Positions 2-168 of a DNA stretch of 11,967 nt are shown piece by piece. The position numbers and the translations under genes are program-made. Origin of the DNA: Nitrospinota bacterium (lineage in GTDB: Bacteria > UBA8248); contig JAYGFR010000174.1 in the NCBI GenBank assembly GCA_046581755.1, forward strand, positions 1 to 11,967. Reading direction: 5' to 3'. Each line of letters starts with the position of its first letter. Position 1 is the stretch's first letter. The notes below the pieces were generated by a model. That model saw only the letters and a list, made by a program, of their open reading frames with translations, was not told where the DNA came from and did no database searches.

Positions 2-118
2 GAAGCGGGCAAAAAGCCCAGGGTTGCCCTGGTCGCCTGCATGCGGAAGCTTTTGACCATCCTGAACGCCATGGTTCGAAGCGGGCAACCATGGCGCACT
101 CAGGCTGTTCCGGCTTGA
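2..118 (+). CDS. IS110-family transposase (bridge recombinase), C-terminal fragment; gene starts upstream of the window
   Basis: Manual translation from position 2: [38 protein letters not shown], stop TGA 116-118. [22 protein letters not shown] is the characteristic C-terminal motif of IS110/IS621-like transposases. Not in the ORF track because there is no start codon in the window. Confidence 0.92.
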
Positions 119-120
119 CA
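115..120 (+). promoter_or_regulatory. Perfect -35 hexamer TTGACA in the IS110 right end (half of the circle-junction promoter)
   Basis: TTGACA ends 15 nt before the end of the CT core, so a 17-nt spacer would place a -10 box about 3 nt into the left end once the element circularises, as known for IS110-family junction promoters. Confidence 0.7.
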
Positions 121-168
121 GGGAAGACAGTCGCTGCCCCCGATAGTGATACCACTCCCTATGTTACC

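Follow-up and report, generated by a model that had tools for sequence, protein, structure and literature searches.

What brought the end of an IS110-family element flush against the terminal repeat of an IS3-family element, and did the element itself select that site? The window analysed here, 11,967 nucleotides long, is contig C223 from its base 1, in an assembly of 4.2 Mb and 400 contigs. The answer that we hold with considerable confidence, from sequence comparison, is that an IS621-type IS110 element (~1.16 kb) lies at the CT of an IS407-type repeat and was likely placed there by a bridge RNA directed against TGAC-CT-GCCCC.

The junction and its IS3 host

The features of the window that define the junction are the following.

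2..118, + strand: 3'-terminal part of an IS621-type IS110 recombinase gene, ending in the stop codon TGA (116-118); the remainder of this copy, with its left flank, is cut off by the contig start
115..120, + strand: TTGACA, predicted -35 box of a circle-junction promoter, by analogy with IS621
127..133, + strand: left donor-site half ACAGTCG, matched in full by the left donor guide ACAGTCGCT that the left-end RNA of the element carries
134..135, + strand: CT core, common to the IS110 end and to positions 5-6 of the IS3 right repeat
136..140, + strand: right target half GCCCC, which with the core is the reverse complement of the right target guide GGGGCAG (alignment columns 52-58)
134..154, + strand: IS407-type right inverted repeat of the IS3 remnant, without its terminal TGAC (intact copies in C265, C363 and C110)
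169..342, - strand: 3' fragment of IS3 orfB (integrase core tail), with rve_3 and NF033516 matches
357..479, - strand: 5' part of IS3 orfA, interrupted by an in-frame TAG; an internal deletion, also present in other copies, joins it to the orfB tail
542..567, - strand: intact IS3 left inverted repeat, GT replacing the CT core

Frame 2 of positions 2-118 encodes the last 38 codons of an IS110 transposase, a C-terminus 97% identical to that of P0001 (contig C304), which carries PF02371. After the CT core the window continues GCCCCCGATAGTGATACCA. Intact right repeats of the same IS3 family at C265, C363 and C110 start TGACCTGCCCCCGATAG, and thus exactly TGAC is absent from the window repeat while the CT is shared. 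The original prediction, that the IS110 right end abuts an IS3 right repeat shortened by 4 nt with a common CT, is therefore borne out by the intact copies of this genome.

The host is an internally deleted, non-autonomous remnant of 436 bp. Its orfB tail matches rve_3 with an E value of 5.6e-12 and NF033516 with 5.5e-9, the latter below the cut-off of that profile. The left repeat reads TGACGTGCCCCCC from 567 on the minus strand, also written TGACGTGCCCC; the terminal repeats begin TGACCTGCCCC and enclose orfA and orfB in order, as in an IS3 element. The IS407-type label was set by the repeat sequence and not by comparison with a reference IS407 transposase. Table 2 of PMC2877748 gives the IS407A repeat as TGACCTGCCCCCT, and the tabulated repeats of IS407A and ISPa32 (PMC2877748 Table 2; PMC7378034 table) start TGACCTGCCCCC. 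These tabulated ends carry the word spelled by the guide, whereas the window host differs from IS407A and ISPa32 in being a 436-bp deletion derivative with GT in its left repeat.

The orfA/orfB fusion of the remnant (window 134-567) is spanned by at least four other copies (C54, C137, C265 and C289) at 82-86% identity, and such a multi-copy derivative suggests a mobilised mini-element. At L071:1626-2056, in a contig of run X2, the left-repeat end of the mini-IS3 is joined back to the right repeat (going back 431, depth 52), which is either a tandem copy or an IS3 circle junction without the IS110. The end-to-end IS3 copy at C265 has no target duplication. GCG or GCGG, the predicted duplication, stands at the end of none of the ten assembled left flanks of the genome, and pairing of left and right flanks by 4-mers gave six matches, none distinguishable from the others. 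Window positions 657-850, between the IS3 remnant and a downstream gene, are GC-rich and of low complexity, and include a direct repeat of 31 bp (784-814 and 820-850).

The left-end RNA, the recombinase and the proposed insertion

The left end of the element comprises about 210 non-coding bases before the start codon, predicted to fold into a 5' hairpin followed by two stems with internal loops (z -2.59). Across 27 aligned relatives the RNA scaffold shows compensatory change in 13 of its 21 pairs, and 94.4% of its cells are paired as against 34-46% in slid controls, a comparison that favours the structure since it was derived from the same alignment. Read by the IS621 layout, the target guides are TCGTGACCT on the left and GGGGCAG on the right, an exact match to the outer 11 bp of the IS3 repeat; folding of the left end, proposed as a check of the original prediction, thus gave a target loop spelling TGAC-CT and GCCCC. 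The full predicted target has 14 bases, TCGTGAC-CT-GCCCC, of which the IS3 tip contributes 11. The left donor guide, ACAGTCGCT, is identical to the right end of the element, while the right donor guide has one mismatch or more with the left end. Both loops fit handshake pairing: the C that follows the right target guide is complementary to the G at donor position 7, and the G that follows the donor right guide to the C at target position 7.

Joining of the two element ends would create a putative sigma-70 promoter, TTGACA and TATCTA separated by 17 bp; the -10 box is TATCTT in seven of the eight relatives shown. A CT core is found at both element ends, with the core and guide arrangement of the IS110 group. 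The long non-coding region lies upstream of the gene, unlike the downstream region of the IS1111 group, and in 10 elements no inverted match between the 45-bp ends exceeds 5-6 bp, short of the 11-13 bp of the sub-terminal repeats of that group. The RNA had no match in Rfam at E 1, and in RNA run X15 left-end coverage was no higher than that of the gene, with no sign of RNA expression. Among the joints listed for four public runs kept as contigs there was no IS110 circle joint, a result that carries no weight as to absence.

The recombinase is represented by P0012, a full-length 314-aa allele 95% identical to the L075 copy, which scores above the cut-offs of NF033542, PF01548 and PF02371 and displays the N-terminal DEDD domain (PF01548) and the C-terminal PF02371 domain with conserved Ser of IS110-group recombinases. 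It is related to IS621 and ISCro4, with E values of 1.9e-37 and 2.3e-36 (PDB 8wt6 and 9t56). The copies in L063, L071 and L075 are without the first catalytic Asp, through a 23-bp deletion in L063 and L071. A close homologue (88%) bears the label Nitrospinota in its source.

By analogy with IS621, the element would form a circle, a promoter across the circle junction would drive the bridge RNA, and the DEDD/Ser recombinase would join circle and target at the CT core. The target loop (TCGTGACCT and GGGGCAG) would pick the IS3 tip and the donor loop (ACAGTCGCT) the element end, and near-match sites elsewhere would be used less often than IS3 ends. Such an insertion would shift the terminal TGAC of the IS3 by ~1.16 kb from the transposase-binding region, presumably blocking that end until the IS110 exits. 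The TG tip would thus be displaced by about 1.16 kb and not destroyed, as had been supposed. Because the window host is itself an internally deleted remnant, its loss of mobility can only be presumed. Reversal may be rare: excision of IS621 is described as less efficient than insertion in the available text of PMC13626964, and another IS110 copies out with the donor left in place according to the portion consulted of bioRxiv 2025.10.25.684509. The guide covers 11 bp, the same length as the cleavage domain that has been mapped in IS2, an IS3-family element.

Flanks and guides in the genome and among relatives

Four right ends and ten left ends of the same IS110 are present in the genome. Three of the four right ends (C223, C302 and C119) adjoin IS407-type IS3 right repeats, and the IS3 junction is therefore more than chance; the C119 flank is assigned to IS3 because it aligns with HMM-verified ends at 78-80% identity (73-78 bases). 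The fourth, in C304, adjoins an amidase-like gene, labelled by reading of the translation and not by family search. The left flanks read TGAC-CT in seven of ten cases and TGAC-CC, CGAC-CT and TGGC-CT, each one base off, in one case each; four of the ten left ends belong to older truncated copies at 85-91% identity. TGAC-CT was the left flank originally predicted, and tabulation of the copies upheld it, here and across TGAC-guided elements in general, where 26 of 31 left flanks have exact TGAC. Uninterrupted paralogues of the C191 and C396 left flanks continue without TGAC, and therefore TGAC arrived there with an inserted element or through a later deletion. Orthologues of four left flanks were sought in five relatives; none was found for three, and the two matches for C38 end before the junction. 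Metagenome contigs L063, L071 and L102 were rejected as a means of pairing left with right flanks, since they are mosaics of different genome copies. C302 (G000:C302:17665-19100, with the start in L007) also carries, some hundreds of bases further downstream and beside the truncated IS3 copy, another gene of the IS110 family, unrelated to the first, whose open frame has 476 codons.

The perfect 11-mer TGAC-CT-GCCCC stands empty 21 times in the genome, against 3.6 expected, and 12 of these sites adjoin an IS3 transposase by HMM, most others being repeat-like by eye; sites with one mismatch number 140. IS3 ends are thus the main landing pad, since most perfect sites are IS3 ends. Two of the five distinct right flanks of the window-type element are outside IS3, the amidase gene and the C247 site. 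Non-IS3 empty alleles were found as TGGC-CT-GCCCC in a C352 paralogue and as GGAC-CT-GCCCC at C247, a site occupied in L095. Because these two near-match sites have empty alleles, it is the sequence that is recognised, with IS3 tips strongly favoured. The possibility that other copies sit in unrelated targets, which would have spoken against the original prediction, was thus answered in part: most left ends read TGAC-CT, but non-IS3 near-match sites are used as well. Since IS621 prefers a CT core, the left repeat with its GT should make a poor target; that it is unoccupied in the window proves nothing, because many CT ends, the 21 perfect sites, are also empty.

Among 40 related genomes four match the left end. 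L018/L054 is a whole element of 68% identity with both flanks readable on one contig: TGAC-CT on the left and, on the right, CT-GCCCCC followed by orfA (HTH_Tnp_1, E 2.4e-14), that is, an IS3 left repeat. A further IS110-family element, in reverse orientation and with sub-terminal repeats, occupies the same IS3 copy (L054:2030-3380), in orfB at the RYGYR-motif codons. A metagenome scan for right junctions gave 118 loci, many of them elements at 48-69% identity; because the scan fixed the right flank to GC[ACT]CC, this sample is biased.

Guides and flanks vary together in these relatives. With one representative for each of 15 guide types, guide and left flank of the same element agreed at 74 of 105 positions in all, as against a shuffle mean of 52.8, and none of 20000 shuffles reached 74, a one-base register shift being allowed in data and shuffles alike. 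In the 31 left flanks of TGAC-guided elements, guide positions 1-7 match in 4, 7, 12, 27, 29, 28 and 29 cases. Positions 1-2 are also loose in non-IS3 relatives (4 and 2 of 12), and the pattern weakly suggests that positions 1-3 are free because they lie outside IS3. Similarly, relatives with the right guide GGTGCAG have the flank GCACC; these sister lineages (L073, L096, L098, L076, L105 and L122) sit in GC-rich palindromic repeats ending CT-GCACC. A guide-pattern scan of a collection of genome contigs returned 19 matches, 3 real and 16 by chance in coding DNA, with no new guide type. The viral scan gave three matches, all without transposase, and the plasmid DNA search no close element. Six plasmid relatives (48-53% identity, including ISMno7) carry different guides and have different flanks. 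Two plasmid relatives with other guides lie just upstream of an IS3-like orfA start (L186:2440-2620) and beside an apparent IS66-type gene (L183:2440-2620), both neighbours labelled by reading.

The right flanks of TGAC-guided lineages were tallied by hand with small, home-made IS3 profiles, giving 24 distinct flanks.

Clear IS3 (13): C223, C302, C119, L018, L066, L114, L115, L117, L121, L125, L134, L143, L153
Weak, CCA repeat-like spacing only (5): L068, L100, L128, L169, L170
No IS3 sign (6): amidase site, L095, L131, L069, L097, L106

For C302, C119, L068, L069, L095, L115, L143, L153, L169, L170 and the window copy the guide was assigned from the element right end. The tally leaves out duplicates (L071, L102, L126, L150, L152, L094, L113, L063, L075 and L163), flanks shorter than 10 bases (L081 and L092) and IS3-positive loci whose guide lies outside the locus (L130, L147 and L176). 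No IS3 match was found in seven controls with other guides and a GCCCC flank (L064, L087, L089, L108, L112, L129 and L162), and the difference from TGAC-guided flanks has a Fisher p of 0.025, which is overstated because the rows are related. The claim that the element hits IS3 ends holds for right repeats, as in the window, and is to be widened: IS3 left repeats serve as targets too, in L018, L066, L130 and L134.

In a protein tree of 28 rows the 13 TGAC-guided elements fall into four supported clades, mixed with other guides, with weak deep branches. A single clade for them, a group named before the tree was built, is rejected (p-AU 4.5e-82). The four clades share the TGAC/GGGGCAG pair at 48-69% protein identity, on different RNA scaffolds and in two loop registers, TGAC sitting one base earlier in the loop in two of them. 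The TGAC guide thus likely arose more than once, in a sample picked by right flank; the four-clade pattern fits repeated origin, with ancestral targeting followed by losses, or swapped left ends, as alternatives. We advance only tentatively, and with some doubt, the wider proposal that IS110 bridge RNAs evolved repeatedly and independently to spell the outer 11-bp cleavage domain at the ends of IS407-type IS3 elements, forming a guild of hyperparasites that caps and silences IS3 copies and follows IS3 across phyla. If true, this would be a natural RNA-guided brake on a transposon family, each new IS3 insertion being a harmless landing pad. The same guide in separate clades and two registers also offers a usable natural case of guide evolution.

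The guide might instead be real without having been selected for IS3, having drifted to a GC-rich 11-mer of which IS3 ends are merely the commonest copy. The use of non-IS3 sites, the 6 of 24 right flanks without IS3 sign, and sister lineages one or two guide bases away (TAGC, ATGC) that sit elsewhere all accord with such drift, and the chemistry would be the same, the evolutionary reading alone differing. We nevertheless consider it unlikely, for the TGAC/GGGGCAG pair is kept across the four divergent clades despite different scaffolds and registers, and the guide match ends at the edge of the IS3 repeat (27-29/31 at positions 4-7, 12/31 at position 3).

Rather than guided insertion, the reverse order of events, in which an IS3 end inserted beside the IS110 end, or a deletion scar there, could have left the junction with an incidental match. 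Truncated IS pieces abound in the genome, C302 retains only 28 bp of the IS110 end and several left ends are cut short. IS3 events, however, would spare the IS3 tip, yet the tip is the missing part; moreover, the same junction position recurs at many unrelated loci, the guide spells both halves, and in L018 the tip stands on the far side of the IS110. A scar is largely refuted by TGAC-CT and CT-GCCCC on one contig in L018, L114, L117, L121 and L125, and is highly improbable. An assembly artefact of collapsed repeats, which the position of the window at a contig end, the 400 contigs and the mosaic metagenome contigs of the element might suggest, can scarcely be credited, for the window junction occurs in three independent metagenome contigs (L071, L102 and L126), in a public-run contig (X10 record 5, 67 bp) and in other lineages, and mosaicism alters the pairing of left and right flanks, not the junction itself. 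The runs holding the window stretch are marine (20 rows, 16 studies).

Relation to known systems

Guided insertion into the IS3 tip, the preferred reading, places the element close to IS621 and ISCro4/IS622, which in the available text of PMC11208160 and PMC11208158 likewise combine a DEDD and Ser recombinase, an upstream RNA with two guide loops and a CT core, together with a 9-nt left guide, a 7-nt extended right guide, the handshake, a junction promoter and the absence of sub-terminal repeats. Unlike IS621, described there at REP-type sites, the target here is the terminal repeat of an IS407-type IS3, and 11 of 14 target bases come from a conserved landing pad while the other three, on the outside, lie in host DNA that varies. 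IS4321 and IS5075, as presented in the accessible part of PMC11187229, are likewise IS110-family elements that insert into the terminal inverted repeats of a different kind of mobile element, the Tn21 family. They differ in belonging to the IS1111 group, with sub-terminal repeats and a Tn3-family host rather than IS3. ISEc21, in the same portion of PMC11187229, is closer still in its IS110 group, upstream RNA and IS3-family target, with targeting demonstrated experimentally. In contrast, it is directed to orfB, at the codons surrounding the second Asp of the DDE motif in IS3, and its transposase falls in a 345-385 aa cluster as against 314 aa here.

No IS407-type repeat was named as an IS110 target in the literature searched, including the accessible parts of bioRxiv 2025.05.14.653916 and of the supplements of PMC11187229 and PMC11208160 (ISfinder, TnPedia, target logos and most subscription papers lay outside its scope). 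The supposition that this specificity was undescribed thus stands for the terminal repeat, for which no paper was found, but not for IS3 as such, already targeted by ISEc21 at its DDE codons. The target class appears undescribed in print, whereas mechanism and strategy are already known, and the window case is a good example of known chemistry and strategy rather than a new system. Its interest lies in extending the natural targets of bridge recombinases to a new class, the conserved IS407-type IS3 tip, and a guide covering the outer 11 bp permits a direct test of one mobile element switching off another by RNA guidance. Relatives with open, full-length genes (L081, L097, L100, L114, L117, L121, L125 and L131) are ready test systems.

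Shorter forms were also met among the metagenome loci. L092, L106, L108, L113 and L157 are gene-less IS110 mini-elements of ~330 bp with both ends and the whole bridge RNA, those in L092 and L106 carrying the TGAC guide, while L086 and L124 are short, transposase-free elements in which two IS110-like right ends stand back to back.
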